From Verrucomicrobiota bacterium (GTDB lineage: Bacteria > Verrucomicrobiota > Verrucomicrobiia > Opitutales > Opitutaceae): a DNA stretch of 64,000 bases. Under the pieces are notes generated by a model that saw only the letters and a program-made list of their open reading frames with translations, was not told the origin of the DNA and did no database searches. The position numbers were made by a program, and so were the translations under genes. The stretch covers positions 39,949-103,948 of the forward strand of contig JBEHYR010000007.1 of NCBI GenBank assembly GCA_048498075.1. Reading direction: 5' to 3'. Shown in pieces: positions 13,617 through 63,241 of the stretch (its first letter is position 1; each line of letters starts with the position of its first letter).

Positions 13617-13667
13617 GGAGTGCGGTGGCTCGACCCCGCTTTTCGACCGCCGCGGCTCGACGCGGCG
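13617..13667. repeat. REP-like double-hairpin element (GGAGTGCGG...CCGCTTT family)
   Basis: Close relative at 35511-35558; both copies carry a second GGCTCGAC hairpin. Confidence 0.7.
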
Positions 13668-13820
13668 CATCTGCCAGGATCTTCGCCCACCAGGATCGCC
13701 TGCCCGCAGGCTTCTCCATCCGACCCGCCGCGCGGCTGCACTATTTTCCAACCCGCCCCAGAGGCTGTCAGGCACTTTGGAACGGTTTCAAAAGTAGTGT
13801 CGCCGTGTTTTGGATCGGAT

Positions 13821-13887
13821 GGAGGAGCCTGCTTGCAGGCGAGCCCGGCGGGCGAAAGTCCAACATCGCCTGCAAGCAGGCTCCTAC
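13821..13887. repeat. Inverted REP doublet, family A ((GT/GG)AGGAGCCTGCTTGCAGGCGA)
   Basis: 22-bp arms at 13821-13842 and 13866-13887. Confidence 0.9.
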
Positions 13888-13895
13888 ATCGGCTA

Positions 13896-14042
13896 TAGAG
13901 GCTGTCATGAACTTTCTGTCACAGCCCCAGAGGTAGGGCGGGCATTCCGCTGCCCGCCGGAAAGTCTTTTGTCATTCGCGGCGCTCACGGAATGAGCGCC
14001 CTGCCGGCGAAACCTTCGAACTAAAGTTCATGACAGCCTCTA
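13896..14042. mobile_element. MITE: 143 bp, perfect 18-bp terminal inverted repeats, TA duplication
   Basis: GAGGCTGTCATGAACTTT (13898-13915) and AAAGTTCATGACAGCCTC (14023-14040), with TA on both sides; internal GTAG hairpin at 13933-13958. Confidence 0.75.
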
Positions 14043-16193
14043 GCGATACAGCGCCGTCGTCGGCGCCGCCGTGAGCACATTGTATTGCCGCATCGCGAGC
14101 CGCCACCATTCCGCCAGCGACGCCGCCGGACAACTCCACAGCTCCCGGTGCAGCCAGATCATCGATTCCGCATCGAGGAGCAGCGCCATCTTTTCCTTCG
14201 TCGTGAAATTTTCCGGCCCCTCGTGCAACAGCCGGTGCCGCAGCTGCGCGAACCACTCGCGCGCCTCGTCGTTCGAACGGCGTTGCCGCAGCAGCGCGAC
14301 ATGCATCGCGTTCACATACGGATCGAGCACCGCCTGCAGCAGGCCGTAATCGGCGCGCAGCGGCCGGATCGGCTGCAAGTGCCGGTAGCACTCAGCCAGA
14401 TTTTGGCGCAGCCGCCGCAGTTCGTAGTTCGGCTGCGTCTCCTCCGGCGTGAGAAACAGCCCCACCTCCCGCGCGCGCCGGCCGAATCGGGCCTGGCTCA
14501 ACAAAATCGAAATCGGAATCGCGAACACCAACCCCGCCACCACCGGGCTCAGCCACCAGAAAAATGCCGGCAACAAAATCAACGCCGACAGTCCCCACAC
14601 GAGCCCGACCAGCGACTGCCCGACGTGCGTGATGATCGCCTCGCGCCAGTCGGTGCCGTCCTCGCCTTCCGCGGAACCCCGCTTCTGCGTCACCCACGAC
14701 ACGCCCTGACCGAGCAGCGTGAAGAGCACGAACTTCGAGTGAAACATCATGTTGATCGGCGCGAGCAGGGTCGAAATCGCCATCTCGCCCAGCGCGCTGA
14801 TCGCGAAGCGCACGCGCCCGCCGAATTGCTCCACTTCCTCGCGCCGGCCGAGCATCACGAAAATGCTCACCAGCTTCGGCAGGAAGAGCAGCAGCATCGT
14901 GAACAGGAACAGCGTCAGCGCTTCCGGCACCTCGATCTCATAGCCGAACAGCGACGTGTAGTCTTCCGGCCGCGCGCGGCCCGAGGCAGGCGAGGTCGCC
15001 AGATCGAGGGCGTTGATCGAGCTGAGAAACAAAAACAGCAGCCACAGCGGCGACGACAGATAAGCCATCACGCCCATGAAAAGATGGAAGCGATTCGCCG
15101 GCCGGAATCCGCGCGCCGTCAGCAGCCACGCGTGCTGCATGTTGCCCTGGCTCCAGCGCCGGTCGCGTTTCGCGCTCTCGATCAACGTCGGCGGGCCTTC
15201 CTCGTAGCTGCCGTCGATGTCGTGCGCGAGCCACACCGCCCAGCCCGCCCGCCGCATCAACGCCGCCTCGACGAAATCGTGCGATAATATCCGCCCGCCG
15301 AACGGCTCGCTCCCCGGCAAATCCGGCAGCGAGCAGTGCTCCATGAACGGCTGCACGCGGATGATCGCGTTGTGCCCCCAGTAATTTCCCTCGTGCTGCT
15401 GCCAGTAGTGCAGCCCCGCGAGAAAAAGCGGGCTGTACACGCGATTCGCGAACGACTGCAGCCGGGCGTAGAGCGTCTCGCCGTTCACGATCCGCGGCGC
15501 GGTCTGGATGATGCCCGCCTGCGGATTTTTTTCCATCAACGACACGAGTTGCACGAGCGCCCGGCCGGTCATGATCGAGTCCGCATCGAGCACGACCATG
15601 TAACGATAATTTTTTCCCCAGCGCCGCAAGAAGTCCGCGATGTTGCCGGCCTTCTTGTTGATTTGATTCAGCCGCTTCCGGTAAAAAATTTTTCCGAACC
15701 CGTCGACTTGCTTGCAGAGTTCCAGCCACGCCACCTCTTCCACGATCCATTGCGAGGGCTGGTTCGAATCGCTGAGCACGAAGAAGTCGAAGTGCTCCAG
15801 CTTCTTCGTCTCCTGCACGGAGCGAAACACCACGCGCAAGCCCTCGAACACGCGGCTCACGTCCTCGTTGAAGACCGGCATCACGATCGCGGTCGAAGCG
15901 AGCGGCACTTCCTCGCCCCGCGCCAGCGTCGCCATCACCCGGCTGCTGTCGCCGCCACGGTTGATCACGTAAAACCCCGCGAGCGCCGTGCAGAAGCCCA
16001 CCGCCACCTGTGAAAACAGCACCACGAACAGCAGCAGCAGCGTGAACTCCAACGCCGTGATACCGTCGCGCCAGAGCAAATCGGCCATGAACCACGTCGC
16101 GAGGCTCGTCAGGAAAAAGATCGACGAGAAAAACGAGAACCGCCGCCGGTTCAGCCGGGCGGAGGTCATGCGTTCGTTGAAAGCGTAGCGCAT
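14040..16193 (-). CDS. opgH: Osmoregulated periplasmic glucan glucosyltransferase OpgH/MdoH
   Basis: MPVFNED, KKAGNIADF, LDADS, YWGHNAIIR, ILSHDFVEAALM, RDRRWSQGN. Confidence 0.96.
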   Translation of the reverse strand: MRYAFNERMTSARLNRRRFSFFSSIFFLTSLATWFMADLLWRDGITALEFTLLLLFVVLFSQVAVGFCTALAGFYVINRGGDSSRVMATLARGEEVPLASTAIVMPVFNEDVSRVFEGLRVVFRSVQETKKLEHFDFFVLSDSNQPSQWIVEEVAWLELCKQVDGFGKIFYRKRLNQINKKAGNIADFLRRWGKNYRYMVVLDADSIMTGRALVQLVSLMEKNPQAGIIQTAPRIVNGETLYARLQSFANRVYSPLFLAGLHYWQQHEGNYWGHNAIIRVQPFMEHCSLPDLPGSEPFGGRILSHDFVEAALMRRAGWAVWLAHDIDGSYEEGPPTLIESAKRDRRWSQGNMQHAWLLTARGFRPANRFHLFMGVMAYLSSPLWLLFLFLSSINALDLATSPASGRARPEDYTSLFGYEIEVPEALTLFLFTMLLLFLPKLVSIFVMLGRREEVEQFGGRVRFAISALGEMAISTLLAPINMMFHSKFVLFTLLGQGVSWVTQKRGSAEGEDGTDWREAIITHVGQSLVGLVWGLSALILLPAFFWWLSPVVAGLVFAIPISILLSQARFGRRAREVGLFLTPEETQPNYELRRLRQNLAECYRHLQPIRPLRADYGLLQAVLDPYVNAMHVALLRQRRSNDEAREWFAQLRHRLLHEGPENFTTKEKMALLLDAESMIWLHRELWSCPAASLAEWWRLAMRQYNVLTAAPTTALYR

Positions 16194-16202
16194 GGGTTAG
16201 AG

Positions 16203-16280
16203 CCAGGGCGTGTCGTCCCCGACGCGCCGGATCGGTCCCACCGCGAGATCTCGCGGCGCGTTAAGGATCGCGCGCCCGGC
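16203..16280. repeat. Inverted REP-like doublet (GGCGCG...CGCGCC family)
   Basis: Hairpins at 16207-16228 and 16255-16276; relative at 39985-40010. Confidence 0.65.
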
Positions 16281-16290
16281 CTGCCTGACC

Positions 16291-16884
16291 TCACCGCGTC
16301 GCATAAAAAATCGCCGCGAGCACCCCGGCGAAAAGCAGCCACAAAAACAGCGTCCGCAGCAGCGGCAGTTTTTCGAATCGCTCGAGCGTCTCGCCCGCCG
16401 CCTCGGAAATCGGCCCGAGGTCGATCGGCCGTGGCACCATGCTCGACACTGCCATGTCCGGCCCGGCCGTCAGCGCGCCCGTCTGCATCGCCTTCACAAA
16501 TTCCTCGGGCATTTTGTTTTCCTCGAGAAACGCGTCCGACCACTTCTGCGGTCCATCGCACAGCAGCAGCGCCACGCGGCCGTCCACCGCGATCCGTTCG
16601 TGCGGCTGCTCGCGCACCCCGAGCGCGTGCGCGAACCACTGGTCCATCATCCGCTCCGTCTCCTCGGCCGCGAGGGTCGTCGGTTCGACCATCGGATCCG
16701 CCGCGTGACGCTGCGCCGCGCGCTCGAGGATTTTCAAAATCAGCCGGCTCGAGTGCAGCCGGTTGTGGATCCGGTGCGCGCGCAAGTAGTCCTCGACGCG
16801 CACATACGCGTCGTTCCACGCGTCCATCGAGCCCGTCGTCGGCCGAAACGCACCGGGCAACTCGATTGGCTGCACCTCGCTCAC
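16291..16884 (-). CDS. Hypothetical protein with a C-terminal TM anchor, between opgG and opgH
   Basis: GTGA overlap with the opgG stop; AWNDAYVRVEDYLRAH; C-terminal LFLWLLFAGVLAAIFY. Confidence 0.8.
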   Translation of the reverse strand: MSEVQPIELPGAFRPTTGSMDAWNDAYVRVEDYLRAHRIHNRLHSSRLILKILERAAQRHAADPMVEPTTLAAEETERMMDQWFAHALGVREQPHERIAVDGRVALLLCDGPQKWSDAFLEENKMPEEFVKAMQTGALTAGPDMAVSSMVPRPIDLGPISEAAGETLERFEKLPLLRTLFLWLLFAGVLAAIFYATR

Positions 16885-18389
16885 GGTTGCCAGAGATAAC
16901 TCCACGTCTCCGTGAGCACGTGCGGCGATTTTTTCAGGAAGCACCGCAACTCGACCGGCTGTTTCGAGCCGTCCGGCCGGATCGAGAACGCCACCCGCCA
17001 CGTGCCATTATGAGGATTCTTCAACACGACGGAATGCGTGAGCTTCGCACCGGTGCCGACGGTCACGACCGCTTCGATCGCCGGGTCCGCGCCTTGTTTC
17101 GCGAGATAGGGACTCGAAAAATCCACGAAGAAGCGTTCGAGGTCCGGCTCGTGGGTTTTCGTGCGACCGTGCCGCGTCGCCACGGCGTAGCCGCCCGGCG
17201 GCTTGATCTGATCGAGAAACCAGTGCAGCCGATACTCGTATTGCAGCGCCTCGCCCGGCGGCGGCAGTTTCTCCGGCACCCAGAATGCGACGATGTTGTC
17301 GTTCGTTTCGTCCGGCGTGGACAGCTCGACGAGGCGCACTGCACCGCGGCCCCATTTGCCGATCGGCTCGATCCAGACACTCGGCCGTTGATCGTAGGAG
17401 GCTTCGAGATCCTGATAATTTTCGAAATTCCGGTCGCGTTGAAACAACCCGAATCCGTGCGGGTTCTCGTCGCTGAACGCCGCCACGCGCATCGTCGCCG
17501 GATTCGTCAAGGGCCGCCACAGCCACTCGCCCGCGCCGGTCGCGAGCAAGAGACCGTCGGAGTCGTGCACCTCGGGGCGAAAATCATCCGTCACCGCATT
17601 CGTGTTCTCGCCGTGCCAGAACATGCTCGTGAGCGGGGCCAGCCCCACGGTCTTCACCGCCTTGCGGAAAAACAGCGCGGCTTTCACGTCCGCCACCGTG
17701 TCCGCACCCGGCGTGACGATAAAACGATACGCACCCGCCACGCTCGGGCTGTCGAGGAGCGCGTAAATCGTGATCGCCTTCGCATCCTGCGCCGGCCGCT
17801 CGATCCAGAATTCCGTGAACGTGGGAAACTCCTCGCCCCCCGGCTCCGCGGTGTTGAGCGCGAGCCCGCGCGCCGACAGCCCGTAGATCGCTTTCTGGCA
17901 GAGCAGCCGGAAATAGCTCGCGCCTTGGAACGCGCCGAGCTCGTCGCCCGGCTTGTTCAATGCGTAGAGCATGCGAAAACCCGCGAAGCCCATCGAACTC
18001 GGCAGCTCGCCCGTTTTCAGCCGGTCGTAGATGAAGAGTTTCGCGTCGAACGGAATCGGTTCCGCCTGACCGTGCTTGATCTCGGAAATCTGCACCGTGC
18101 GATTGAGCAGGAAGCCGGGATGGAAAAACTGCAGTTGAAACGGCAGGCCGTCGCGGCGCCACCACGCGCGTTCCGGATCGAAACGGATGAGACGGTGCTC
18201 GTCGTAAGTGAGCTTCGTCAGCCACTCGGGCACGCGGTTCGGCGGCGCGATGTAGGGCTTCTCGGCGAGTACTTTCGCGCGATAGCGCAGCGTTTCAAAA
18301 TCGAAATGGTCGTCGTCGGCGCGCGCCGCCGGACCGAGTGATGCGCCGAGGAGGAGCGCGACCAAAGCTGCCTGGGAAACGAGTTTCAT
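16881..18389 (-). CDS. opgG: Periplasmic glucan biosynthesis protein OpgG/MdoG
   Basis: Signal peptide; FQGASYFR, YGLSARGLA, EEFPTFTEFW, RPEVHDSDGL, DETNDNIVAFW, LTETWSYLW. Confidence 0.96.
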   Translation of the reverse strand: MKLVSQAALVALLLGASLGPAARADDDHFDFETLRYRAKVLAEKPYIAPPNRVPEWLTKLTYDEHRLIRFDPERAWWRRDGLPFQLQFFHPGFLLNRTVQISEIKHGQAEPIPFDAKLFIYDRLKTGELPSSMGFAGFRMLYALNKPGDELGAFQGASYFRLLCQKAIYGLSARGLALNTAEPGGEEFPTFTEFWIERPAQDAKAITIYALLDSPSVAGAYRFIVTPGADTVADVKAALFFRKAVKTVGLAPLTSMFWHGENTNAVTDDFRPEVHDSDGLLLATGAGEWLWRPLTNPATMRVAAFSDENPHGFGLFQRDRNFENYQDLEASYDQRPSVWIEPIGKWGRGAVRLVELSTPDETNDNIVAFWVPEKLPPPGEALQYEYRLHWFLDQIKPPGGYAVATRHGRTKTHEPDLERFFVDFSSPYLAKQGADPAIEAVVTVGTGAKLTHSVVLKNPHNGTWRVAFSIRPDGSKQPVELRCFLKKSPHVLTETWSYLWQP

Positions 18390-19324
18390 TTGTCCAAAAA
18401 ATATCCGCGTTGCTTCCCCGAAATCGGCAGCCCCGCCCGCTCCATCACTTTCAGCAAATCATCCCAAATCATCCGCTTCGAACGATTGGACTGGTTGCGC
18501 AGGATGTAACTCGGGTGATACGTCACCATCAGCGGCTTGCCGGCAAATTCGTGCCACTGCCCCCGCACGTCGCCCAGCGCCTTGAAGCTGCCCGCACCGA
18601 GCAGTCCCTGCGTCGCAGTCGAGCCGAGCGCGACGAGCAGGTCGGGATTCACGATCTCGATCTGCGCGCGCAGATACGGCAGGCAGTAGCGCATCTCGTC
18701 GTCGCCCGGCGGACGATTCCCGTATTGCACGCCGGCCGCGTTCACCGGCATTTCCGGCCGCCAGTTCATGATGTTCCCGATGTAGACGTCTTCGCGTTTG
18801 AGACCCATGGCTCCGATCATTTTTGTGAGCAACTGTCCCGCGGGACCGACGAACGGTTCCCCCTGGACCTCTTCTTCCGCCCCGGGCGCTTCCCCGACGA
18901 ACATGATTTTCGCATCGAGGCTCCCCACGCCGACGACCACCAATTTTCCCGGACGCACGTGCGCGCGGCAGACCGCGTCGCCCAGCACGCGTTCGCGCAA
19001 GGCCGCCATCCGCGTCGCCTTGTCGCCTTCCGGCAACGTAAACGCTACCGGCGCCGGAATCGCCGCGACACCCGCCGGCAGCCCGACCGGCTTGGCGACG
19101 ACCACCGCAGGCTCCGGCAGGTTCACCTCACGCTTCGCCGCCGTCGGCGCGGCCGCACTCGCAACCGTCACGGCGGCCGCCGCCGGTTCATGGCCGGCCG
19201 AGCGTTGGTTCGCCACCGCCTGCCGCAACGCCGCCACGCTCGTATCCAAAACAAGCACGGTCTTCACGCCCGTCGCTTTCAAGCGACGCAACTCGTCCGT
19301 GAGGGCGATCAGCGCGGATTTCAT
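18386..19324 (-). CDS. udg: Uracil-DNA glycosylase family 4
   Basis: MFVGEAPGAEEE..GEPFVGPAGQLL, TYHPSYILR. Confidence 0.92.
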   Translation of the reverse strand: MKSALIALTDELRRLKATGVKTVLVLDTSVAALRQAVANQRSAGHEPAAAAVTVASAAAPTAAKREVNLPEPAVVVAKPVGLPAGVAAIPAPVAFTLPEGDKATRMAALRERVLGDAVCRAHVRPGKLVVVGVGSLDAKIMFVGEAPGAEEEVQGEPFVGPAGQLLTKMIGAMGLKREDVYIGNIMNWRPEMPVNAAGVQYGNRPPGDDEMRYCLPYLRAQIEIVNPDLLVALGSTATQGLLGAGSFKALGDVRGQWHEFAGKPLMVTYHPSYILRNQSNRSKRMIWDDLLKVMERAGLPISGKQRGYFLDK

Positions 19325-19339
19325 GGGGAACAACAGAAG

Positions 19340-19936
19340 CTACAATTGCCGGGTGGCCAGTAACTTTTCGACATGTTTGCCGAGCAAATCGAATTCCAAA
19401 TTAACCCGCTCGCCCACGCGTCGCGAATGCAGATTCGTGGCGAGCATGGTATGCGGGATGAGCCACACCGCGAATTCGTCGTCCGTCACTTCCGCGATGG
19501 TCAGCGAGATGCCGTCGATCGCGATGCTGCCCTTGTGCACGATGTAGCGCGTCCAGCCGCCGGCCACGCGCACGCGCAGGTAGTGGTCCTTCCCGCGCGG
19601 CTCCAGCGCCACGATCTCGCCCGTCGTGTCGATGTGCCCGGTCACGAAATGCCCGCCGACCTTTCCGCCGAACCGCAGGCTGCGTTCGAGATTCACGAGC
19701 GAGCCCTCGCGAAACGCCCCGAAGTTCGTCAGCCGCTTCGTCTCCTCGAGCACGTCGAACCGCAGCGTCCCGTCGCCGACCTCGACGATCGTCAGGCAAC
19801 AGCCGTTGATGGCGACGCTGTCGCCGAGCGCCGCGTCCTGCCGCACGACGTCCGCGGCGACGATCAGCGCCCAGGCTTCCGCTTCGGCGCGAAACGACAC
19901 CACGCGCCCCGCTTCTTCAACAATTCCGGTGAACAT
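19340..19936 (-). CDS. ribE: Riboflavin synthase alpha chain
   Basis: MFTGIVEE, GDSVAINGCCLT, VNLER, GGHFVTGHID, KGSIAIDGISLT, VNLEFD. Confidence 0.96.
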   Translation of the reverse strand: MFTGIVEEAGRVVSFRAEAEAWALIVAADVVRQDAALGDSVAINGCCLTIVEVGDGTLRFDVLEETKRLTNFGAFREGSLVNLERSLRFGGKVGGHFVTGHIDTTGEIVALEPRGKDHYLRVRVAGGWTRYIVHKGSIAIDGISLTIAEVTDDEFAVWLIPHTMLATNLHSRRVGERVNLEFDLLGKHVEKLLATRQL

Positions 19937-20009
19937 GAGTTGATTCAAAAAGAGTTTTCCGCATTTGCGAGCGACTGCTCCGGGATGCATTCCATCCGAA
20001 ATCCGAAAT

Positions 20010-20076
20010 GGAGGAGCCTGCTGGCAGGCGATGATCCGCCTTCAACCACTGAAATCGCCTGCCAGCAGGCTCCTCC
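20010..20076. repeat. Inverted REP doublet, family A
   Basis: GGAGGAGCCTGCTGGCAGGCGA (20010-20031) and its reverse complement (20055-20076). Confidence 0.9.
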
Positions 20077-20103
20077 ATTTCGCATAAGGTTCACCGGCGG
20101 TTT

Positions 20104-21549
20104 CTAAAGTTTCAGCCGCAGCACGGCCGTCTGTCCCCCGCGGCCAACGAGCACGACGGCCTCCGTGCGCAGCTTGTCCGCCTCGATCGCCGCGAGCTGC
20201 GCGACCGCCGCCGCGAACGTCTTCACTTCCACGCCGTCGATCTCCTTGATCCAATCGTCCGCGCGCAACCCGGCCGTTGCCGCCGGACTGTTCGGCTTCA
20301 CGAAGTGCGCGATCACACCCGTCGCCTCGCTGACCTTCGCGCGCCGCGCCACCGCGTCGTCGTGCACGAATTCGCGCGCCGTGAATCCCAGCCGCTCGAA
20401 GTATTTCCGCTCCGCCTCGGCGAACAACTTCGGCTGTTCGCCGAGCACGATCTTCGCGTCCACCTTCGCGCCCGCTCTCAGCACGGTGAACGTCACCGCA
20501 TCGCCCGGCCGTCGCTTCTGGATCTCGCGATCGACATACGCGATCGCCACGCGATCCGGCCGCAACCGCGGCAAGGGCTGGCCGTCGATCGCGAGCAGGA
20601 TGTCGCGATCCTTCAATCCGCCCGCCGCCGCCGGACTGCCGTCGATCACCTCGCTGAGCACGAGCGCCGACTGCGAACCGAGTTTCAGATATTTCGCCAC
20701 TTCCGACTCGACTGGTTCCAGTCCGTAAGCGCCGAGCCATGGCAGCGGACGCCCGAACACGTTCTTCGGAATCCGGCCGAGATACGGCAGCACCTCGGGC
20801 GCGAGCAACGCCGCGCCGCTCTCCTCCACATTGACCATGATCACCGGCAAGCCGCCGCGATCCTCGCGCGAGAACTGCACGTAATTTTGCCCGAACGCGC
20901 TCGCCGCGATCCCGACGAACTCGCCGGCGCGATTGAACGCCGGCAATCCCGGCCCCGCGATTTCCTGCTGCGCGATCGCCGTGCGCTGCGGCAGCGACTG
21001 CACGAGGGCGACGCGGCTCATGAGCAGATAGGGAATGAAATCTTCCTCCTTGTTGCGCAGGCCGATGCCCCACAGCTCCTCGGCGACCGCGGGCTCCGAA
21101 AATTTTTCCGCGGCAAACGTCGTGATCGGCACCAGCGCCGCGCGCATCGATTCCGCGACGCGCACGAAATGCCAGCCCGTGAGCGCATCCTGTCCGAGAT
21201 ATTCCGCTGGCGCGCTCTCGGGATCGCCCGGCCGGTAGACCTTGAATTCCTTCAACTGCGACGGCGTGCTGCGTGCGTTCACCGCCGCCGAGGGCAGGAT
21301 GATCGTGCCGTCATGATCGATGACGGTCCCGTAGGCGATCGCCGGACGCCGGTCGGTCTCCGTCTCCATATAATACTCCACTGCGACGACGGTCTTGACG
21401 CGTTCCGCCCAGAGCGTCGCGAGATCCGCCGCGCGGACCGCTGAAACCGCGAGCAACGCGCAACACACGCCATGTAGGAGCCTGCTTGCAGGCGATTTCC
21501 CGGCGCGAACATCGCCTGCAAGCAGGCTCCTACCAAAAAACGTCATCAT
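20104..21549 (-). CDS. Trypsin-fold plus 2x PDZ protein, catalytically degenerate HtrA paralogue
   Basis: GTVIDHDGTII...GQDALTGWHFVRV...GLPAFNRAGEFVGI; PDZ motifs GSPAAAGGL and NSPAATAGL; no TNAHV or GNSGG. ATGA overlap with the upstream stop. Confidence 0.8.
   Translation of the reverse strand: MMTFFGRSLLAGDVRAGKSPASRLLHGVCCALLAVSAVRAADLATLWAERVKTVVAVEYYMETETDRRPAIAYGTVIDHDGTIILPSAAVNARSTPSQLKEFKVYRPGDPESAPAEYLGQDALTGWHFVRVAESMRAALVPITTFAAEKFSEPAVAEELWGIGLRNKEEDFIPYLLMSRVALVQSLPQRTAIAQQEIAGPGLPAFNRAGEFVGIAASAFGQNYVQFSREDRGGLPVIMVNVEESGAALLAPEVLPYLGRIPKNVFGRPLPWLGAYGLEPVESEVAKYLKLGSQSALVLSEVIDGSPAAAGGLKDRDILLAIDGQPLPRLRPDRVAIAYVDREIQKRRPGDAVTFTVLRAGAKVDAKIVLGEQPKLFAEAERKYFERLGFTAREFVHDDAVARRAKVSEATGVIAHFVKPNSPAATAGLRADDWIKEIDGVEVKTFAAAVAQLAAIEADKLRTEAVVLVGRGGQTAVLRLKL
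21474..21533. repeat. Inverted REP doublet, family A, inside the predicted CDS
   Basis: GTAGGAGCCTGCTTGCAGGCGA at 21474-21495 and its reverse complement at 21512-21533; exactly 60 bp. Confidence 0.9.
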
Positions 21550-34393: not shown

Positions 34394-35500
34394 ATGCCCT
34401 CCGCCCTTCCCGCACCCCTCGTCCCCGGCCAGCCCCTCACCGCGCTCGCGCCGATGCAGGACGTCACCGACCTCGCCTTCATGCGCGTCATCGCGCACTA
34501 CGGCGCGCCGGACTATTTCTTTACCGAGTTCTTCCGCGTCCACGCGCAGTCGCGCCCCGAGAAACACATTCTCCGCTCGATCGACGAAAACACCACCGGC
34601 CGTCCCGTCTTCGCCCAGCTCATCGGCGAAGATCTCTTCCACCTCGCTCGCACCGCCGCGGAACTTCTCCGCCACCCCGTTGCCGGCATCGATCTCAATC
34701 TCGGCTGCCCCGCCCCGAAGGTTTACAAGAAAAACGTCGGCGGCGGCCTCCTCCGCGATCCCGCGCGCGTCGGTGAAATTCTCGCCACGCTCCGCGCCGC
34801 CACCCCCGGCCTGTTCACCGTGAAGATGCGCATCGGCTTTGACGATACGGCTCCGTTCGAGCGCGTCATGGAACTCGTCAACACCCACCACGTCGATCTC
34901 CTCAGCGTTCACGGCCGCACGGTGAAGGAGATGTATCGCAGCGACGTTCACTACGATTTCATCGCTCGCGCGGTCGCGCTCTCCCGCTGTCCCGTGCTGG
35001 CGAACGGCAACATCACCTCCGCCGCCCGCGCCGCCGCCGTCCTCGCCGACACCCGCGCCGCCGGTGTGATGATCGGCCGCCACGCCATCCGAAACCCGTG
35101 GATTTTTCGCCAGTGCCGCGAGCTTTTTGTAGGGCGGGGTCTCCCGACCCCGCCTCCGATTTTCCGTCCCACCCTCGCCGACGTCCGTGACTACATCGAC
35201 CGGCTCTATCGCGCCACGCAGTCTCCCGATTTCCCCGAACGCGCCCACGTGAACAAAATGAAGAAATACCTCAACTTCGTCGGCCAGGGCGTCGATCCCG
35301 ACGGCGCGTTCCTCCACGACATGCGACGCGCCGAAACCGAGCAGCAACTCTTCACGATCTGCGACCGCCACCTCGTCGCCGGTTCCGCCGCTTCGCGCGA
35401 ATTCTCTCTCGAGCCCTACCCCGGCGTGATCGCCCGCCCAAATTGCGAGACGCCCGACTCCACCGCCGACGGCTGCTCCCTGGAGTCCATCACGGCCTGA
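34394..35500 (+). CDS. dus: tRNA-dihydrouridine synthase family protein
   Basis: LAPMQDVTD, DLNLGCPAPKV, VKMRIG, VHGRT, ANGNI, MIGRHAIRNPWIF. Confidence 0.92.
   Translation: MPSALPAPLVPGQPLTALAPMQDVTDLAFMRVIAHYGAPDYFFTEFFRVHAQSRPEKHILRSIDENTTGRPVFAQLIGEDLFHLARTAAELLRHPVAGIDLNLGCPAPKVYKKNVGGGLLRDPARVGEILATLRAATPGLFTVKMRIGFDDTAPFERVMELVNTHHVDLLSVHGRTVKEMYRSDVHYDFIARAVALSRCPVLANGNITSAARAAAVLADTRAAGVMIGRHAIRNPWIFRQCRELFVGRGLPTPPPIFRPTLADVRDYIDRLYRATQSPDFPERAHVNKMKKYLNFVGQGVDPDGAFLHDMRRAETEQQLFTICDRHLVAGSAASREFSLEPYPGVIARPNCETPDSTADGCSLESITA
35129..35154 (+). repeat. GTAG REP hairpin inside the dus coding sequence
   Basis: GTAG-GGCGGGGTC-TCCC-GACCCCGCC; relatives at 13933-13958 and 56855-56877. 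Confidence 0.8.
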
Positions 35501-35510
35501 GCGGCGTTTT

Positions 35511-35558
35511 GCAGTGCGGCGGCTCCACGCCGCTTTCTCCGCGCCGGCTCGACGGCGC
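35511..35558. repeat. REP-like double-hairpin element between convergent dus and sufT
   Basis: GCAGTGCGGCGGCTCCACGCCGCTTT..., matching 13617-13667. Confidence 0.7.
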
Positions 35559-38145: not shown

Positions 38146-38240
38146 GGAGCGCGGGCGCCCCCGCCCGCACCATCGAGATTCGCGTATCGAGTTGAGAGTC
38201 GCACCCAAGTGCGCCTGTAGCCCGGCGCGGGAGCGCCGGG
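38146..38240. repeat. Two REP-like hairpins upstream of sppA
   Basis: GGAGC-GCGGGCG-CCCC-CGCCCGC (38146-38168) and GTAG-CCCGGCGC-GGGA-GCGCCGGG (38217-38240). Confidence 0.75.
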
Positions 38241-39846: not shown

Positions 39847-39917
39847 GTAGCGGCGGTCCGTGACCGCCGGCTCGACCACGATTCTCCTCGAACCTGGTGG
39901 TCACGGACCGCCGCTAC
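39847..39917. repeat. Inverted REP doublet (GTAGCGGCGGTCCGTGACCGCCG family)
   Basis: Arms at 39847-39869 and 39895-39917; relative at 52534-52603. Confidence 0.85.
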
Positions 39918-39984: not shown

Positions 39985-40161
39985 GTCGGGCGCGTTATCC
40001 CGAACGCGCCGATCGGGTTGACGAATGCCCCCGGAGCGCAGGTCACGAACAACCCGCCTTCCTTCCGATTGCCGCCTAATTTTTAGCCACCCGCGTTTCG
40101 CCCCGCTGCCTCCCGCCTCGGAACGTAAATCGAGTCGATGTAGGAGCCTGCTTGCAGGCGA
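39985..40161. repeat. Single REP hairpins: GTCG-GGCGCGTT..AACGCGCC (39985-40010) and family A (40140-40161)
   Basis: Direct match to other copies in the window. Confidence 0.75.
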
Positions 40162-40280
40162 TGTTTGATCCTCGGGTTCCTGCGAAACGCGCAGCCGCCG
40201 TTCGTCAGCTGCGCAGGGAAGATTTCATTTTCCCGCTGCTCTGCCCGTTCTCCGCCGTTCAACGGCGGGATTCAGGTCCA

Positions 40281-43950: not shown

Positions 43951-44046
43951 TGTCATTCTGAGCGCAGCGAAGAAGCCATTTGGACGTTCGCACGCGTGTC
44001 GTGCCACGCAGCGCGCACTGGATTCTTCACTTCGTTCAGAATGACA
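43951..44046. mobile_element. 96-bp non-autonomous palindromic element (TGTCATTCTGA...TCAGAATGACA)
   Basis: 27-bp imperfect inverted arms plus a 42-bp spacer; reverse-complement copy at 52678-52773; extra partial arm at 44066-44086. Confidence 0.75.
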
Positions 44047-44238
44047 AACCGGGCGGTTCGTCAGCAGCGCAGCGAAGAAGCCATTTCGACTCCCGCTCGG
44101 TAACAATCGCCCGACCTCTCAATGGCCCCATCGCCATGCAGGAGCCTGCTGGCAGTCGATTCCGCGCCCGGTCGTCTTCATCGCTCCCCCGCGAATTCGG
44201 TTTGCCCGCCCCTCCGTGCACCCTAGCCTCGGCCCTCT

Positions 44239-48609: not shown

Positions 48610-48720
48610 GGAGTTCCGAGTTCCCGTGTACCCCGCCCCGTAGCCCTGCGCGGGAGCGTAGGGACCGAAACGAGGAATTCCAACCTCGAACTCGAAACCC
48701 AGAACTCCAAACCTCGAGTC
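48610..48720. repeat. Composite repeat: heptamer arm, GTAG/GGGA hairpin, inverted heptamer arm
   Basis: GGAGTTC CGAGTTC; GTAGCCCTGCGCGGGAGCGTAGGG (48640-48663); AACTCGA-like units. Confidence 0.75.
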
Positions 48721-49990: not shown

Positions 49991-50084
49991 CGAGTTTCGG
50001 GTTCAGTGTTCCGAGTTTCAAACCGCTCCGCCTCGTAGCCCTGCGCGGGAGCGCAGGGATCATCCACCCCAAAACCCGAAACTC
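49991..50084. repeat. Composite repeat: heptamer arm, GTAG/GGGA hairpin, inverted heptamer arm
   Basis: CGAGTTT CGGGTTC..; GTAGCCCTGCGCGGGAGCGCAGGG (50035-50058); AACCCGAAACTC is a perfect inverse of 49992-50003. Confidence 0.75.
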
Positions 50085-52533: not shown

Positions 52534-52603
52534 GGAGCGGCGGTCTATGACCGCCAAGTTCGGAAAATTCACAGTCAACCCGGCCGTCACAGACCGCCGC
52601 TCC
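52534..52603. repeat. Inverted REP doublet (GGAGCGGCGGTCT..GACCGCC)
   Basis: Arms at 52534-52555 and 52582-52603; same family as 39847-39917. Confidence 0.8.
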
Positions 52604-52677: not shown

Positions 52678-52773
52678 TGTCATTCTGAACGCTGTGCAGA
52701 ATCCAGTGCGCGCTTCGTGGCACGACGCGCGTGCGAAAGTCCAAATGGATTCGTCGCTGCGCTCAGAACGACA
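52678..52773. mobile_element. Second copy of the 96-bp palindromic element
   Basis: 9 mismatches in 96 bp by hand count against the reverse complement of 43951-44046. Confidence 0.75.
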
Positions 52774-52814: not shown

Positions 52815-52838
52815 GTAGCCCGCTGCGGGAGCAGCGGG
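52815..52838 (+). repeat. GTAG REP hairpin with a GGGA loop
   Basis: GTAG-CCCGCTGC-GGGA-GCAGCGGG. Confidence 0.8.
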
Positions 52839-54961: not shown

Positions 54962-54972
54962 GTGCCTCCTAT

Positions 54973-54996
54973 GTAGCCCGCTGCGGAAGCAGCGGG
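54973..54996 (+). repeat. GTAG REP hairpin with a GGAA loop
   Basis: GTAG-CCCGCTGC-GGAA-GCAGCGGG. Confidence 0.8.
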
Positions 54997-55108
54997 ACCA
55001 ACGCCTCCCTCGCTCCAGCTGCTTGCCTCCTCCGCGCACCACCTCCGCCAGCGGCTCATCCCCACGTCACCATTGCCATTCCCGCTGCCCTCCGCCAAAT
55101 CTGCCCCA

Positions 55109-55705
55109 ATGGATTTTCGCCGCGCGCTGCTCCCGCTTTTCCTGCTCCTCTCGCTCGCCGCCCTCGCCGGCTGCAACGCCGCCGGCCCCGCTTCCGCCGG
55201 CGCGAATCCCGCCGTCCCGGCCGTCGCCTCGTCCGCCCAACTCCGCAACGGCGACAGCCTCACGGTCTCCCTCCAGGGCGTGCCCGATCCGAGTGTGAAC
55301 ACCGTCCAGATCGACGACCGCGGCACGATCAGCCTCCCCTTCATCGGCGCCGTCGCCGCGTCCGGCCTGAACACCGGCGAACTCGGCGAACGCGTCCGCC
55401 AAACCTATCTCGCAAAAAAAATCTACAACACCGTCGACGTCTCCGTCACCGTCACCGAGCGCTATGTCTACGTCGGCGGCGAGGTGGTGAAACCGGGCCG
55501 CATCATCTGGACGCCCGATCTCACCGCCGCGAAAGCGATCCAGTCTGCCGGCGGCTTCACGCTCTACGCGAAGGAAAGCCGCGTCGCCCTCGTGCGCGAC
55601 CAGAAGACCTACGACCTCGACATCAAGCTCGCGCAAAAAAATCCGTCACAGGATCCGCCCCTCGTCCCCGGCGACTCCCTCCAAGTCCCCCGCTCGCCGT
55701 TTTAG
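55109..55705 (+). CDS. Short OPX (Wza-like) polysaccharide export lipoprotein
   Basis: Lipobox LAGC; GDSLTV, IDDRGTISLPFIG, YVGGEVVKPG, PGDSLQVPRS. Confidence 0.88.
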   Translation: MDFRRALLPLFLLLSLAALAGCNAAGPASAGANPAVPAVASSAQLRNGDSLTVSLQGVPDPSVNTVQIDDRGTISLPFIGAVAASGLNTGELGERVRQTYLAKKIYNTVDVSVTVTERYVYVGGEVVKPGRIIWTPDLTAAKAIQSAGGFTLYAKESRVALVRDQKTYDLDIKLAQKNPSQDPPLVPGDSLQVPRSPF

Positions 55706-55730
55706 GTGGAGCCCGACGTCCCGTCGGGCT
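55705..55730 (+). repeat. REP-like hairpin GGTGGAGCCCGACGTCCCGTCGGGCT
   Basis: Near-identical copy at 63215-63241. Confidence 0.8.
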
Positions 55731-55752
55731 CGTTCCCCTCGCCTCGGCCGCC

Positions 55753-56772: not shown

Positions 56773-56854
56773 GGTGCCGCCACGCTACCACACGCCGCGC
56801 GCCCCGCGCCACCCGTTTCTCCGCGCACCCGTTGCGGTTCTCCGCTCGCCTGAT

Positions 56855-56965
56855 GTCGGGCGGGTTTCCCACCCGCCGTCTGTAATTTTGTGATAACTTT
56901 TCCCTACCCGCTTGTCCCCTCCCTCATTTCCGATCTCTCAACTCTCAGCTCTCAACTCTCAACTC
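56855..56965. repeat. GTCG REP hairpin (56855-56877) and NCTCTCA heptamer run (56934-56965)
   Basis: GTCG-GGCGGGT-TTCCC-ACCCGCC; TCTCTCA ACTCTCA GCTCTCA ACTCTCA ACTC. Confidence 0.75.
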
Positions 56966-56968
56966 CTC

Positions 56969-59005: not shown

Positions 59006-59243
59006 GGTTGGGGCGGGACGTTCCATCGCGTTCGACTGTCCTCTATCGGCGCAAACATGCCCGCACTGGAGTCTATCGTCGGTTGCCGCCGCGCCTATTT
59101 CTTTCCGGCCTCTGCAGCAAAAAAATCTGTCCCACCCTCCGCCTCTGCATCCGTGTCATCCGCGGGAAAATCCCGCGCCGCTCGTCCGCAAACAAGCTCG
59201 CCCGTCTCGCGCTTTTTCCCAAAGTTCGCTCCCTTTCCTTTTC

Positions 59244-60626
<1,383 letters not shown>

Positions 60627-60707
60627 TTGGGCTTCATCCTCCACTCTAGACGCGCCCTCGCCGGCCTCGACGCCTGCTCGCGCGTTTTGAAATTTTCCGT
60701 CGCCGAT

Positions 60708-60729
60708 GGAGGAGCCTGCTTGCAGGCGA
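60708..60729 (+). repeat. Single family A REP
   Basis: GGAGGAGCCTGCTTGCAGGCGA. Confidence 0.85.
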
Positions 60730-60908
60730 TTGCCGGATCTTCACCCGCCAATATCGCCTTCCACCAAGCTTCCCCCTTCGACCGCGCCCGGTCGCCGCGC
60801 GCGCCATCCGGGTGATTCTCCAATGCAAAAATTCGTAGCGCGCCCCATGGCCCGCCCCGCGTATTCGCCGCACCGGTCTCTTTTCTGGCGGTCCATGCGC
60901 GTCTTCCT

Positions 60909-61262
60909 ATGCCCACTAAAACTGCCAAAAAAAATGCGCGCCGTGCCGCGCGCTCCGGAAAAAAACCCTCCACCCAGGCCGGCGCTTATGTGCGTGAAGA
61001 GATGCACAAGCTGAAATCCGGCAGCGGCAACGTCCGCTCGCGGAAGCAGGCGGTCGCGATCGGCCTCTCCGAGGCGCGCCGCGAAGGCGTGAAACTCGGC
61101 ACCCCCTCGCGAAAAAAATCCTCCGCCGCCACCCGCAAGAAAGCCCGCCGCGATTCCGCCGTCGGCTCCGGCCGCAAGAAAGTCTCTCCCACGCGTTCGC
61201 GCGGCGCCAAGCAAGCCGCCCGCACGCGCAACCGCCGCTATCGTCGCGCCGCCGCGAAATGA
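60909..61262 (+). CDS. Small basic protein, DUF6496-like
   Basis: VREEMHKLKSG...SRKQAVAIGLSEARREG, Lys/Arg-rich tail. Confidence 0.8.
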   Translation: MPTKTAKKNARRAARSGKKPSTQAGAYVREEMHKLKSGSGNVRSRKQAVAIGLSEARREGVKLGTPSRKKSSAATRKKARRDSAVGSGRKKVSPTRSRGAKQAARTRNRRYRRAAAK

Positions 61263-61269
61263 TCCGCTC

Positions 61270-62223
61270 ATGCTCGCGCGTCCGCTTCGGCCCATCCGCC
61301 GCTCCGCCGCGCGCCCGCGCTCGTCCGCCTCGGTAACCGTGACGTCGCCCCGCGCGCTTCACCGCTTCGGCCTCCTTGCGTGGCTCACGGTGCGCGTCTG
61401 CATCAGCGACAAGATCCCGCGCTTCGGCGCGGCGCTCGCCTTCTACACCACGGTCGCGGTTTCGCCGCTGCTCGTCCTCGCCGTCGCGGTCGCGCAGTTT
61501 TTTTTCAAGGACGACAGCGCGCGCCGCCGCATCCTCGGCGAGATCGACCAACTCGTCGGCTCGTCCGCGACGCAGGCCTTGAACAGCGTGCAATCGCCGC
61601 CCGCCGGCGGCCACTCCGCCACGTTCGCCGCCTGGATCGGCTCCGTCACGCTCATCATCGGCGGCCTCGGCGTTTTCGTGCACTTGCAGGACGCCCTGAA
61701 TTCGATCTGGCGCGCGCCCGCCCACACGAACGAAACCTGGCCGCAGATGATCAAGCGGCGGCTCTTCTCCTTCGGCACCGTGCTCGCGACGGGCTTCGTC
61801 ATGCTCGTGTCGCTCACCTTGAGCGCCGTGATTTCGTGGTTCGGGGAAAACGCGAGCCGTTGGGCCCGCCTTCCTGCCGCCGCGTGGGAAATCGCCAATT
61901 TCACCTTCTCGTTCGCCGTCATCCTGCTGCTCTTCGCCGTGCTCTTCAAACTTCTGCCCGATGTGAAAATCCGCTGGCGCGACGTCTGGACCGGCGCCGC
62001 CGTCACCGCGCTGCTCTTCGTCGCCGGCAAGACGCTCCTCGGCATCTATCTCGCCCACTCGAGCGTCACCTCCGCGTTCGGTGCGGCCGGCTCGGTCATC
62101 GCGCTGCTGCTCTGGTGCTACTACGCCGGCCAGATTCTCTTCATCGGCGCCGAGTTCACCCGCGTGCACGCCCGCACCCACGGCGGCCGCAATCCCCTCC
62201 CGCCCGAATCGCCGCTGCCCTAG
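61270..62223 (+). CDS. YihY/virulence factor BrkB family membrane protein
   Basis: GAALAFYT, LQDALNSIW, FKLLPDVKIRWRDVW, FGAAGSVIALLLWCYY. Confidence 0.92.
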   Translation: MLARPLRPIRRSAARPRSSASVTVTSPRALHRFGLLAWLTVRVCISDKIPRFGAALAFYTTVAVSPLLVLAVAVAQFFFKDDSARRRILGEIDQLVGSSATQALNSVQSPPAGGHSATFAAWIGSVTLIIGGLGVFVHLQDALNSIWRAPAHTNETWPQMIKRRLFSFGTVLATGFVMLVSLTLSAVISWFGENASRWARLPAAAWEIANFTFSFAVILLLFAVLFKLLPDVKIRWRDVWTGAAVTALLFVAGKTLLGIYLAHSSVTSAFGAAGSVIALLLWCYYAGQILFIGAEFTRVHARTHGGRNPLPPESPLP

Positions 62224-62310
62224 CTCCGCCGTGAACGCCGATTTCGCCGCGACGCACTCTTCCGCGTAGCCGCCCCGCTTACGGCGCGGTTCTTCTCATC
62301 CGCTCCGCTC

Positions 62311-62835
62311 ATGTCCACTGCCTTCGACTCGTTGACCGCGAACCTGCTCGGCCTCCACGTGGCGCCGGCAGAACTTCACTTCAGCCACATGGCGTGGCGC
62401 GCTCTCGTCGTCGTCGTGTGGTCGCTCGTGCTGCTCAACCTTTCGCACAAACGTTTCCTCGGGCGAAACTCCGGCAGCGACATCATGCTCGCCGTCCTCC
62501 TCGGCTCCGTCCTGAGCCGCGCCATCAACGGCCAGGCCGCTTTTTTTCCCACGCTCGGCGTCTGCGCCGTGCTCGTCCTGCTGCACCGCGCGCTCATGGC
62601 CGCCGCGTATCGCTGGCACTGGGTTTCGCTCCTCGCGAAAGGCCGCGACTACGTGCTCGTGCGCCGCGGTCAGATCGACTGGCGTGAAATGCGCCGCTCG
62701 AAAATCACCGAGGACGACCTCCTCGAAAATCTCCGCACCAACGGCAATCTCGGCCGCGTCGCCGACGTTCCCGAAGCCCGCCTGGAACGCAGCGGCGAAA
62801 TCAGCGTGGTAAAAAATCCTCCCAACCCCAAGTAG
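62311..62835 (+). CDS. DUF421 (YetF-like) membrane protein
   Basis: KRFLG...DIMLAVLLGSVLSRAING, ITEDDLLENLR, ARLERSGEISV. Confidence 0.88.
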   Translation: MSTAFDSLTANLLGLHVAPAELHFSHMAWRALVVVVWSLVLLNLSHKRFLGRNSGSDIMLAVLLGSVLSRAINGQAAFFPTLGVCAVLVLLHRALMAAAYRWHWVSLLAKGRDYVLVRRGQIDWREMRRSKITEDDLLENLRTNGNLGRVADVPEARLERSGEISVVKNPPNPK

Positions 62836-62848
62836 CCAAAGTAGGGCA

Positions 62849-62927
62849 GTAGGCGGGCTTCAGCCCGCCTTCTTCAAACGAGTCTTCTGCTCCAGCAGAA
62901 ACCCGAGCGGGCTGAAGCCCGCCCCAC
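62849..62927. repeat. Inverted REP doublet (GTAG/GTGG-GGCGGGCTTCAGCCCGC)
   Basis: Arms at 62849-62869 and 62907-62927. Confidence 0.85.
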
Positions 62928-62931
62928 TCCC

Positions 62932-63147
62932 TCACGCCGGCGGCGTCCGCCGCTCGGCCTGATCCGCCTGCCCCTGCGACGCGACACGCGAAGCCGCAGG
63001 ATTCGCTTCCTCCGCCGCCGGTTTTTTATACGTCACGTCGTCGCCCGGCGCCGCACGCCCCACCGCGCGTTTTTTTCCGCCGGCCAGCGCTGCGAGAATC
63101 ACCACGACCACCGCGACCCCGAGAACGAGCAGAAGAATGTAGCCCAT
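62932..63147 (-). CDS. Small single-TM hypothetical protein (71 aa)
   Basis: MGYILLLVLGVAVVVVILAALAGGKKR followed by a polar tail. Confidence 0.6.
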   Translation of the reverse strand: MGYILLLVLGVAVVVVILAALAGGKKRAVGRAAPGDDVTYKKPAAEEANPAASRVASQGQADQAERRTPPA

Positions 63148-63214
63148 GCCGCCAATCTACCCCGCGCCACGCCCGCCGCCATCGGCCAATCACCCGTCCG
63201 AAGCCTAGGTGACA

Positions 63215-63241
63215 GGTGGAGCCCGACGTCCCCGTCGGGCT
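63215..63241 (+). repeat. REP-like hairpin, copy of 55705-55730
   Basis: GGTGGAGCCCGACGTCCCCGTCGGGCT. Confidence 0.8.

Follow-up and report, generated by a model that had tools for sequence, protein, structure and literature searches.

The stretch of DNA analysed here (the window; 64,000 nucleotides) carries in many of its intergenic gaps short G+C-rich hairpins that belong to several distinct families (Table 1). A sequence-only reading had listed 26 hairpin sites, 24 of which fall in families that are repeated genome-wide. All nine of its family A sites were correct, and a tenth, degenerate copy was found on the minus strand at 13695. Its D and F sites belong to real families, although the sites are actually inverted doublets (39847/39896, 52534/52582 and 62849/62906). 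A family made of 16203 and 39985 stands only in part, since 39985 is a true H unit but 16203 is just the degenerate partner of the H unit on the minus strand at 16255. The grouping of 13933, 35129 and 56855 into one family did not hold: these are a B2 unit in a 147-bp element, a B1 unit in the dihydrouridine synthase (Dus) gene and a unique variant, which fell outside every repeated family in the genome scan. The impression that nearly every intergenic gap holds such a hairpin was overstated, because a repeat was present in about 16 of the 26 gaps beyond 13.2 kb, roughly two-thirds, and in none of the four before it; these gap counts are approximate, as genes were called with a crude GC3-based caller.

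Table 1. Repeat units in the window and transposase genes elsewhere in the genome (contig:positions)
Feature	Position	Strand	Remarks
Family G unit, TTTGGAGTGCGGYGGCTCGACSCCGCTTT	13617..13639	+	foot GGAG in family consensus
Family A unit, degenerate	13695-13717	-	tenth A copy
Family A inverted doublet (REPIN)	13821-13843, 13865-13887	+, -	feet outward; spans 13821..13887
147-bp element	13896..14042	+	20-nt terminal inverted repeats
Family B2 unit	13933-13958	+	in 147-bp element
Family L unit	13980-14004	-	in 147-bp element
Family H, degenerate partner	16203-16228	+	
Family H unit	16255-16280	-	
Family A inverted doublet	20010-20032, 20054-20076	+, -	spans 20010..20076
Family A perfect inverted doublet	21474..21533	+, -	units at 21474 (+) and 21511 (-)
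Family B1 unit	35129..35154	+	
Family G, second copy	35511-35533	+	
Family I unit, GGAGCGCGGGCGCCCCCGCCCGC	38146..38168	+	weak family
Family C units	38217..38240, 48640-48663, 50035-50058, 52815-52838, 54973-54996	all +	
Family D inverted doublet	39847-39868, 39896-39917	+, -	spans 39847..39917
Family H unit	39985..40010	+	
Family A single copy	40140..40162	+	
Family A single copy, degenerate	44138..44160	+	GCAG foot, 3 mismatches
Family D, second inverted doublet	52534-52555, 52582-52603	+, -	
Family E units	55705..55730, 63215-63241	both +	GTGG foot
GTCG-footed unique hairpin	56855..56877	+	1-2 genomic copies at <=4 mismatches
Family A single copy	60708..60730	+	GGAG foot variant
Family F inverted doublet	62849-62869, 62906-62927	+, -	spans 62849..62927
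Family A RAYT	C47:42268-42885		flanking inverted A copies
Family B1 RAYT	C46:5957-6622		flanking inverted B1 copies
Family C RAYT	C36:39183-39758		flanking inverted C copies
Family F RAYT	C10:15487-16080		flanking inverted F copies; gene frameshifted
Family G RAYT	C115:2195-2749		flanking G doublets
Family J RAYT	C21:66577-67071		flanking inverted J copies
I-like family RAYT	C24:17110-17724		flanking inverted I-like copies
Family M RAYT (family not listed earlier)	C9:90037-90642		flanking inverted M copies

Annotators should be warned that the repeats enter coding regions in frame. The B1 unit lies in frame within the Dus gene, where it encodes VGRGLPTPP, and the perfect family A doublet sits at the 5' end of a PDZ-domain gene on the minus strand. 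The family C stems occur as variants C1, C2 and C3 that differ by compensatory changes, and the family I unit is related to the repeats around the transposase gene on C24.

Copies were counted by a Hamming scan of the 6.04-Mb genome allowing up to three mismatches, with reversed or shuffled patterns as controls. About 1,680 units in 15 families were detected, and the spread was 27-464 copies per family over 19-91 contigs: 464 of A, 348 of C (C1 and C2 merged), 199 of B1, 104 of D, 82 of F, 53 of G, 46 of H, 30 each of B2 and I, and 27 of E. Families J (221 copies), K (35), L (32) and M (9) had been absent from the earlier list. The control patterns gave 0-3 matches, and perfect hairpins of at least 7 bp with GTAG immediately 5' (n=759) were 32-fold over expectation. 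The consensus foot is GTAG in 12 of the 15 families, GTGG in E and GGAG in G and I; among the feet in the window, GGAG, GCAG and GTCG represent minority variants. These numbers refute the idea that the families are an eye-made grouping of chance G+C-rich palindromes in a genome of 65% G+C, except in part for family I and two unique hairpins. Family I is the weakest, being very G+C-rich, with 47% of its matches outside called ORFs and controls of up to 3; the two unique hairpins are those at 56855 and 16203. As an explanation of the hairpins at large, chance is left with a negligible probability.

Each unit folds into a 4-nt unpaired foot followed by a hairpin, and a doublet folds into one long hairpin (z about -10). 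The foot-plus-hairpin architecture of REPs and REPINs, often as inverted doublets, had been recognized already in the sequence-only reading. The proportion of units in inverted pairs within 150 nt was 68% in A, 61% in C, 57% in G, 51% in F, 38% in D, 32% in J and 30% in B1, and 0-17% in B2, E, H, K and L. Outside the crude ORF calls lay 72-100% of the units (47% for family I), compared to 24% of the genome; such intergenic statistics are conservative because the caller assigns no more than about 75% of the genome to coding sequence. With a length of 20-40 nt, an unpaired 5' GT[AG]G foot before a G+C-rich hairpin, a high copy number, a dispersed and mostly extragenic distribution and doublets, the units belong with the GTAG superfamily of REPs and REPINs.

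Profile searches with PF01797 and NF047646 found 9-10 Y1 genes in the genome and no Y1 or RAYT match on the contig of the window, in agreement with the absence of a RAYT transposase that had been noted for the window itself. The prediction that several RAYT lineages exist elsewhere was also supported. Eight RAYT-type genes with HUH and Tyr motifs have inverted copies of one specific family within 600 bp, so that each forms a REPtron flanked by its own, genome-dispersed REP family (A, B1, C, F, G, J, I-like and M). The families are repeated outside the window and flank HUH genes. For family A there is one intact gene and a second, broken tandem copy. Pairwise identity among the eight proteins is 18-29%, and the HUH histidines, the catalytic Tyr and an Asn are the sole invariant columns of their alignment; they align with H59, H61, Y115 and N119 of E. 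coli TnpA-REP (numbering of PMC3479197). This same protein is also the best-matching solved structure (4ER8, E 2e-11), and its HUH and Y115/N119 positions line up in that match. Scores on NF047646 (REP-associated tyrosine transposase; cut-off 80 bits) were 109 for C46, 101 for C21, 100 for C24 and a borderline 81 for C64; five genes fell under the cut-off, with 79 for C115, 65 for C47, 63 for C10, 49.5 for C36 and 48.6 for C9, a point against the RAYT reading. We identify the proteins as RAYT-type from their NCBIfam and PDB matches taken together with the REPs beside them.

Two Y1 sequences, a 348-aa gene on C64 and a fragment on C25, both at contig ends, had no flanking REPs. In this they resemble Y1 subclass 2.1/TIRYT, described as long proteins that end in an HTH or DnaA_C-like domain and lack neighboring REPs (PMC6006769), and they are candidate members of that subclass. 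For families D (despite its 104 copies), E, K, B2 and L no RAYT was found in this assembly, and a family H RAYT was present only in the same-genus relative G008. D, E, H and K are therefore orphans in this assembly, with the RAYT lost or unassembled.

The 147-bp element carries B2 and L as an inverted pair of differing REPs, has about 25 near-full copies in the genome, and is the vehicle in which these two families travel jointly. An unrelated 95-nt inverted-repeat element is present in about 230 copies. Because of these two elements, MITE-type mobilization does exist in this genome, and one might suppose that some or all families are MITEs or remnants of insertion sequences, either IS200/IS605 or elements bounded by terminal inverted repeats, and that classical transposases move them. 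B2 and L, always together between 20-nt terminal inverted repeats and neither with a RAYT, favor this idea. However, apart from the REP itself, the other families lack terminal inverted repeats. On the IS200/IS605 TnpA model (NF033573; cut-off 55 bits) the Y1 proteins reach 17-30 bits, against far higher scores on the model for REP transposases, and each Y1 gene is essentially single-copy, in contrast to the multi-copy behavior of an insertion sequence. Copies of IS200/IS605 were accordingly rejected, and the supposition as a whole is hardly credible.

The copy numbers of family A differ among the relatives. More than 50 copies were found only in G004, G003 and G011, all of which keep a RAYT 61-64% identical to that of family A; G002 and G006, which lack an ortholog of this RAYT, have 25-38 copies, and in G008 the family is absent. 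The doublet 20010..20076 is missing from the orthologous spacer of 6-43 nt in five same-genus relatives. At the site orthologous to 21474..21533, one relative has a doublet, three have a single REP and five have no A unit. The empty and occupied sites could reflect insertion or deletion.

Single copies are overrepresented between convergent genes (32% versus a background of 16%) and depleted between divergent genes (7% versus 15%). They favor the 3' sides of genes, and in tandem contexts 72% of them are co-oriented with the transcript. Together with the TTT run after family G and the documented host roles of REPs (PMC3733652), this would suit hairpins that are host-selected elements, such as 3' mRNA stabilizers, terminators or protein-binding sites, copied by recombination and only incidentally close to RAYT genes. 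However, in most families the hairpin is not followed by a T-run, and the Rfam gathering scan of the window gave no match. Intrinsic terminators were rejected, as family G with its TTT is the only one whose consensus 3' flank contains a run of T. Host function alone also leaves unexplained the hundreds of near-identical copies, the family-specific pairing with RAYTs, the copy number lost without a RAYT and the insertion-like differences among relatives. Although very unlikely as the whole explanation, host function and RAYT activity are not mutually exclusive.

We therefore suggest, with a probability of about 0.9, that the hairpins are GTAG-tagged REPs and REPINs of at least 13-15 coexisting families, each major family being served by its own RAYT. 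By homology with E. coli TnpA-REP, each major family would be recognized as single-stranded DNA by its RAYT, a monomeric HUH/Y1 nuclease-transposase whose gene is placed elsewhere in a REPtron, amid copies of the family that it serves. The 5' GTAG foot and the hairpin would be bound base-specifically, the HUH motif would hold the metal and the Tyr would attack a nearby site. Single-strand cleavage and strand transfer may then spread, amplify or remove REPINs. The main result is thus one of annotation, in that it accounts for many intergenic hairpins in the window and the genome.

The system is known biology. The earlier remark that most study of such systems has been in Gammaproteobacteria is fair, but a high enrichment in several GTAG families with repeat-specific REPtrons has been described explicitly for Opitutus terrae (Di Nocera, De Gregorio and Rocco 2013, PMC3733652). 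O. terrae PB90-1 (families GTAG-17 to GTAG-20) is in the same taxonomic family and apparently shares the GTDB genus, with G008 as its probable counterpart among the relatives. In G008 a REP encodes VGPALAAG, the peptide given for O. terrae GTAG-18 (supplement, PMC3733652). Both genomes have a GTAG or sometimes GTGG foot, stems of 6-10 bp, coexisting families, dimers, compensatory stem subfamilies, many in-frame intragenic copies and repeat-specific RAYT genes. The families themselves differ, and the present genome adds a rich case to the same genus, with more families (about 15) and 8-9 RAYT-type genes.

E. coli TnpA-REP (YafM; PDB 4ER8; PMC3333891, PMC3479197), which requires the 5' GTAG foot for binding and cleavage, shares the HUH-Y1 core and a gene flanked by inverted REPs, despite low sequence identity. 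A single RAYT and long REPs with bulges are found in E. coli, compared to eight diverged RAYTs and stems that are mostly short and perfect in the present genome. In Pseudomonas fluorescens SBW25 (Bertels and Rainey 2011, PMC3116915), as here, inverted doublets dominate, each REP group has one RAYT of its own and decay is more advanced in single copies, but that bacterium is of another phylum and has three groups compared to about 15 families. Family A, GTAGGAGCCTGCTTGCAGGCGAT, resembles the Xanthomonas REP GTAGGAGCGCGCTCGCGCGCGA in foot and tail (Nunvar 2010, PMC2817692). IS200/IS605 elements (IS608, ISDra2) likewise use a Y1 HUH transposase, single-stranded hairpins and a 5' guide tetranucleotide, but the genes in our genome fail the IS200 model, are single-copy and do not move with the hairpins.

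A less familiar feature is the polarity of single REPs. The GTAG strand coincides with the C-rich strand in 619 of 717 copies (86%) drawn from all RAYT-linked families, regardless of the direction of the flanking genes and contrary to the genome-wide distribution of GTAG tetramers and base composition; the unrelated 95-nt repeat lacks this polarity. Because no rRNA was found in the assembly with rRNA primer motifs, the leading strand was inferred from core genes. Nine of 11 motif matches (RpoB, RpoC, EF-Tu, IF2, S12, SecY, GroEL, DnaK) were on the G-rich strand, as was ribosomal protein L2, located separately. The C-rich strand would then have the sequence of the lagging strand, i.e. be the leading-strand template. 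The dnaA gene was rejected as an origin marker, since its surroundings have uniformly negative skew here and it is distant from the skew switches in G008.

The polarity suggests that RAYTs act mainly at replication forks. It is possible, though we hold this tentatively and at somewhat less than even odds, that it is a genomic footprint of RAYT action on the lagging-strand template in living cells. RAYTs might act with a preference against REPs that expose the GTAG strand on that template, removing or eroding them, or they might insert REPs in a single orientation. A polarity common to many families and independent of transcription is a direct handle for tying RAYT action to the replication fork; it is computable in any closed REP-rich genome and could matter more widely than the annotation result. 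No report of it was found in the REP/RAYT literature searched, and replication-strand polarity is not among the features reported for O. terrae by Di Nocera 2013 (PMC3733652). IS200/IS605 elements are also biased in orientation relative to replication (PMC3971601), with a sign opposite to that of single REPs. If the GTAG strand is the active one on the lagging-strand template, the observed polarity runs counter to the IS200/IS605 analogy, a point against the proposed mechanism. In G004 the REP polarity is block-wise with a sharp flip near 116 kb, and the GC skew is too weak for calibration. In G008 the sign of the bias was only moderately reproduced, with 19 of 26 exact copies in a hand count against 20-kb skew samples.

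The sequence-only reading had proposed at least nine REP-like families (GTAG-footed hairpin repeats) in the window, and this observation was confirmed. A repeat scan of the window directly recovered families A and C together with the doublets of D, and all but two of the sites that had been listed (16203 and 56855) are members of repeated families. Over the whole genome, the commonest 16- and 21-mers belong to family A (about 300-340 copies) and several other GTAG hairpins come next. In 759 cases GTAG lies immediately 5' of a perfect hairpin (7 bp or longer), which is 32-fold above the expectation from tetranucleotide frequencies, and clustering of all GTAG-plus-hairpin sites gave at least 10 families with at least 20 members. 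The families were counted genome-wide by consensus patterns with up to 3 mismatches (see table), for which reversed or shuffled control patterns gave 0-3 matches; 1,680 REP units were present after merging. Single units fold into a free 4-nt foot and a hairpin, and the inverted pairs (doublets, or REPINs) into long hairpins. Two details of the first description did not hold. The supposed single family B consists of three different sites (13933 is B2, 35129 is B1 and 56855 is unique), and the placing of a hairpin in nearly every intergenic gap was overstated, as about 16 of 26 crude gaps past 13.2 kb and none of the four before it had one. Single copies were commoner between convergent genes and rarer between divergent genes, a placement reported for REPs in general (PMC3733652).

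Several lineages of RAYT, the REP-associated HUH/Y1 tyrosine transposase, had been expected elsewhere in the genome, and this was borne out. Profile searches with PF01797 and NCBIfam NF047646 (REP-associated tyrosine transposase) identified 9-10 Y1 genes, none of them anywhere on the contig of the window, in line with the claim that the window is RAYT-free. For each of eight of these RAYT-type genes, the flanks (up to 600 bp) hold inverted copies of a single REP family of its own, which supports the REP/RAYT interpretation. Three genes scored 100-109 bits with NF047646, for which the curated cut-off is 80 bits, and the remainder 49-81 bits; with the IS200 model all genes stayed far under the cut-off, and the best-matching solved structure was E. 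coli TnpA-REP (4ER8). The eight proteins share only 18-29% identity, and the sole invariant columns of their alignment are the two HUH histidines, a Tyr and an Asn, corresponding to H59, H61, Y115 and N119 in the E. coli enzyme. The nearest relatives of one RAYT protein are found in 'Opitutus sp.' and 'Opitutaceae bacterium' genomes (62-65% identity), which places the organism in the Opitutaceae (Verrucomicrobiota). The frameshifted family F RAYT and the second family A RAYT are either pseudogenes or assembly errors. Two long Y1 forms, a gene on contig C64 and a fragment on C25, had no REP flanks, a trait of the REP-less subclass 2.1/TIRYT of Quentin et al., to which they may belong.

For families D, E, K, B2 and L, no RAYT was found in the assembly. 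Exact copies of family H (GTAGGGCGCGTTATCCTTAACGCGCC) flank a RAYT in the same-genus relative G008 (G008:C1:5903630-5904170, locus L043), but an H-flanked RAYT was not detected in the genome under study despite its 46 H units. Inverted doublets make up 30-68% of the units in the RAYT-linked families, against 0-17% in most of the RAYT-less ones. The latter could be orphans or could have their genes within gaps of the assembly (6.04 Mb in 130 contigs, 65% G+C), in which the RAYT loci tend toward contig ends.

REP families with their RAYT genes (contig coordinates of the assembly) and individual sites (window coordinates)
Feature	Copies genome-wide	RAYT gene or site	Remarks
Family A	464	C47:42268-42885	
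Second family A RAYT		C47:42897-43460 into C92:1-145	Tandem, 89% identical to the first, two frameshifts
Family C (C1 and C2 merged)	348	C36:39183-39758	
Family J	221	C21:66577-67071	
Family B1	199	C46:5957-6622	
Family D	104		
Family F	82	C10:15487-16080	RAYT split by one frameshift
Family G	53	C115:2195-2749	
Family H	46		
Family K	35		
Family L	32		
Family B2	30		
Family I	30		
I-like family (GTGGGAGCGCGGGC...)		C24:17110-17724	
Family E	27		
Family M (GTAGCGGAAGCCGTGAGGCTTTCG)	9	C9:90037-90642	Family missing from the first list
Degenerate H partner		16203	Pairs with 16255-, a true H unit
Unique variant hairpin		56855	Outside the repeated families
147-bp element		13896-14042	20-nt terminal inverted repeats (TAGAGGCTGTCATGAACTTT ... 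AAAGTTCATGACAGCCTCTA)
B1 REP in dihydrouridine synthase (Dus) gene		35129-35154	In frame; encodes VGRGLPTPP near the Dus domain end
Perfect family A doublet		21474-21533	At a PDZ-domain gene (- strand), between the long-ORF ATG and an in-frame GTG start
~95-nt element		43951-44046 and 52678-52773	Imperfect terminal inverted repeats (GTCATTCTGAGCGCAGCGAAGAATCC ... GGATTCTTCACTTCGTTCAGAATGAC)

The interpretation of these repeats is textbook REP/RAYT biology throughout: a GTAG foot with a hairpin, REPINs, one RAYT per family and several families per genome. High enrichment of several GTAG families in O. terrae, along with repeat-specific REPtrons (RAYT genes flanked by their own REP family) and many intragenic copies, had been described before (Di Nocera et al. 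2013, PMC3733652), and the genome under study is therefore a rather rich new example of a known system, not a new system. A REP of G008 encodes VGPALAAG, the peptide listed for O. terrae GTAG-18 in that study (PMC3733652). Of the B1 copies in the present genome, only 72% fall outside crudely called ORFs; copies within genes, like that in the Dus gene, may thus be common, as they are reported to be in O. terrae. Either translation of the PDZ-domain gene reads through the doublet, as part of the N-terminal region, or the doublet has displaced its start codon. The core of the 147-bp element consists of B2 (13933) and L (13980-), two different GTAG REPs in inverted orientation to each other. Near-full copies of the element number about 25 across the genome, and no cognate RAYT was found. 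The ~95-nt element has about 230 BLAST matches genome-wide and is without a GTAG foot.

Comparison with relatives, like the doublet shares above, suggests that these REPs are mobile and dependent on their RAYTs. Across the clade RAYT-type genes are widespread: 30 of the 41 relatives have them, and a single genome can hold as many as 10. Family A was present in 7 of 15 same-genus genomes and was essentially absent outside the genus. It exceeded 50 copies only in G004, G003 and G011, each of which retains a RAYT with 61-64% identity to that of family A, and in G003 family A units flank this gene; G002 and G006, with 25-38 copies, lack one. At the site of the 20010 doublet, the orthologous spacer is 6-43 nt long and REP-free in five relatives. 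In place of the family A doublet of the genome under study, the loci orthologous to window 19991-20103 in G006, G003 and G002 (L018, L020 and L021) hold an insert of another kind, 110-160 nt long and composed of CATCCGTG / CATTCGTG-type motifs; this is probably another repeat family. At the site of the 21474 doublet, one relative has a doublet, three have a single family A REP and five have unrelated, signal-peptide-like sequence.

What adds somewhat to this otherwise known biology is a polarity of the REPs with respect to the replication strands. The GC skew of the genome is unusually strong strand-wide, with contig means from -0.2 to +0.2 and values of up to 0.5 at third codon positions, and its sign is identical in + genes, - genes and intergenic DNA; contig C7, which carries the window at 39949-103948, has a mean of -0.14 and the window itself -0.11 to -0.21. 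It is much weaker in the same-genus relatives G004 and G008. Since 9 of 11 core-gene motif matches (RpoB, RpoC, EF-Tu, IF2, S12, SecY, GroEL, DnaK) and the gene for ribosomal protein L2 are on the G-rich strand, the leading strand is most likely the G-rich one, as it usually is.

Among the 717 REPs outside inverted pairs in the whole genome, 619 (86%, binomial p 2e-93) had the GTAG strand on the C-rich strand, and in the window the single (unpaired) copies all lie on the + strand (e.g. 40140, 44138, 48640, 50035, 54973, 55705 and 60708). The ratio of C-rich to G-rich was similar across families (A 104:13, B1 100:4, C 105:12, D 44:7, F 30:3, J 110:15). The polarity is independent of the direction of the flanking genes, being 143:14 between convergent genes, 33:6 between divergent genes, and 195:19 along and 72:11 against the transcript between tandem genes. 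A family-free scan for GTAG next to perfect hairpins (7 bp or longer) gave 439:122, whereas GTAG tetramers overall lean the opposite way (63% on the G-rich strand), and the unrelated 95-nt repeat had no strand bias (83:72). Of the two halves of an inverted doublet, the one whose GTAG is on the C-rich strand was nearer to the consensus, with 0.84 mismatches compared with 1.21 in the other; it was the better half in 128 pairs and the worse in 83 (p 0.002).

Because the G-rich strand is most likely leading, the GTAG strand of single REPs most likely lies on the leading-strand template, an orientation opposite in sign to that of IS200/IS605 elements (PMC3971601). The polarity would be compatible with two processes. 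There may be preferential cleavage and loss of REPs that expose their GTAG strand on the template of the lagging strand, or the insertion of REPs may itself be oriented. In the REP/RAYT papers that we searched, no such bias was reported, and the lagging-strand template was named as no more than a possibility. In closed relatives the polarity was present but weaker: G004 had long stretches of uniformly oriented REPs and an abrupt switch near 116 kb, and in G008, a closed chromosome of 5,957,605 bp, the local skew sign was matched by 19 of the 26 exact copies counted for one family.

The dnaA gene (G000:C2:128155-128634 in the genome under study) showed no switch of GC skew, which was uniformly negative for more than 100 kb on either side, and dnaA of G008 (G008:C1:410-889) is likewise away from a switch. 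It is thus possible that the replication origin in this genus lies far from dnaA.
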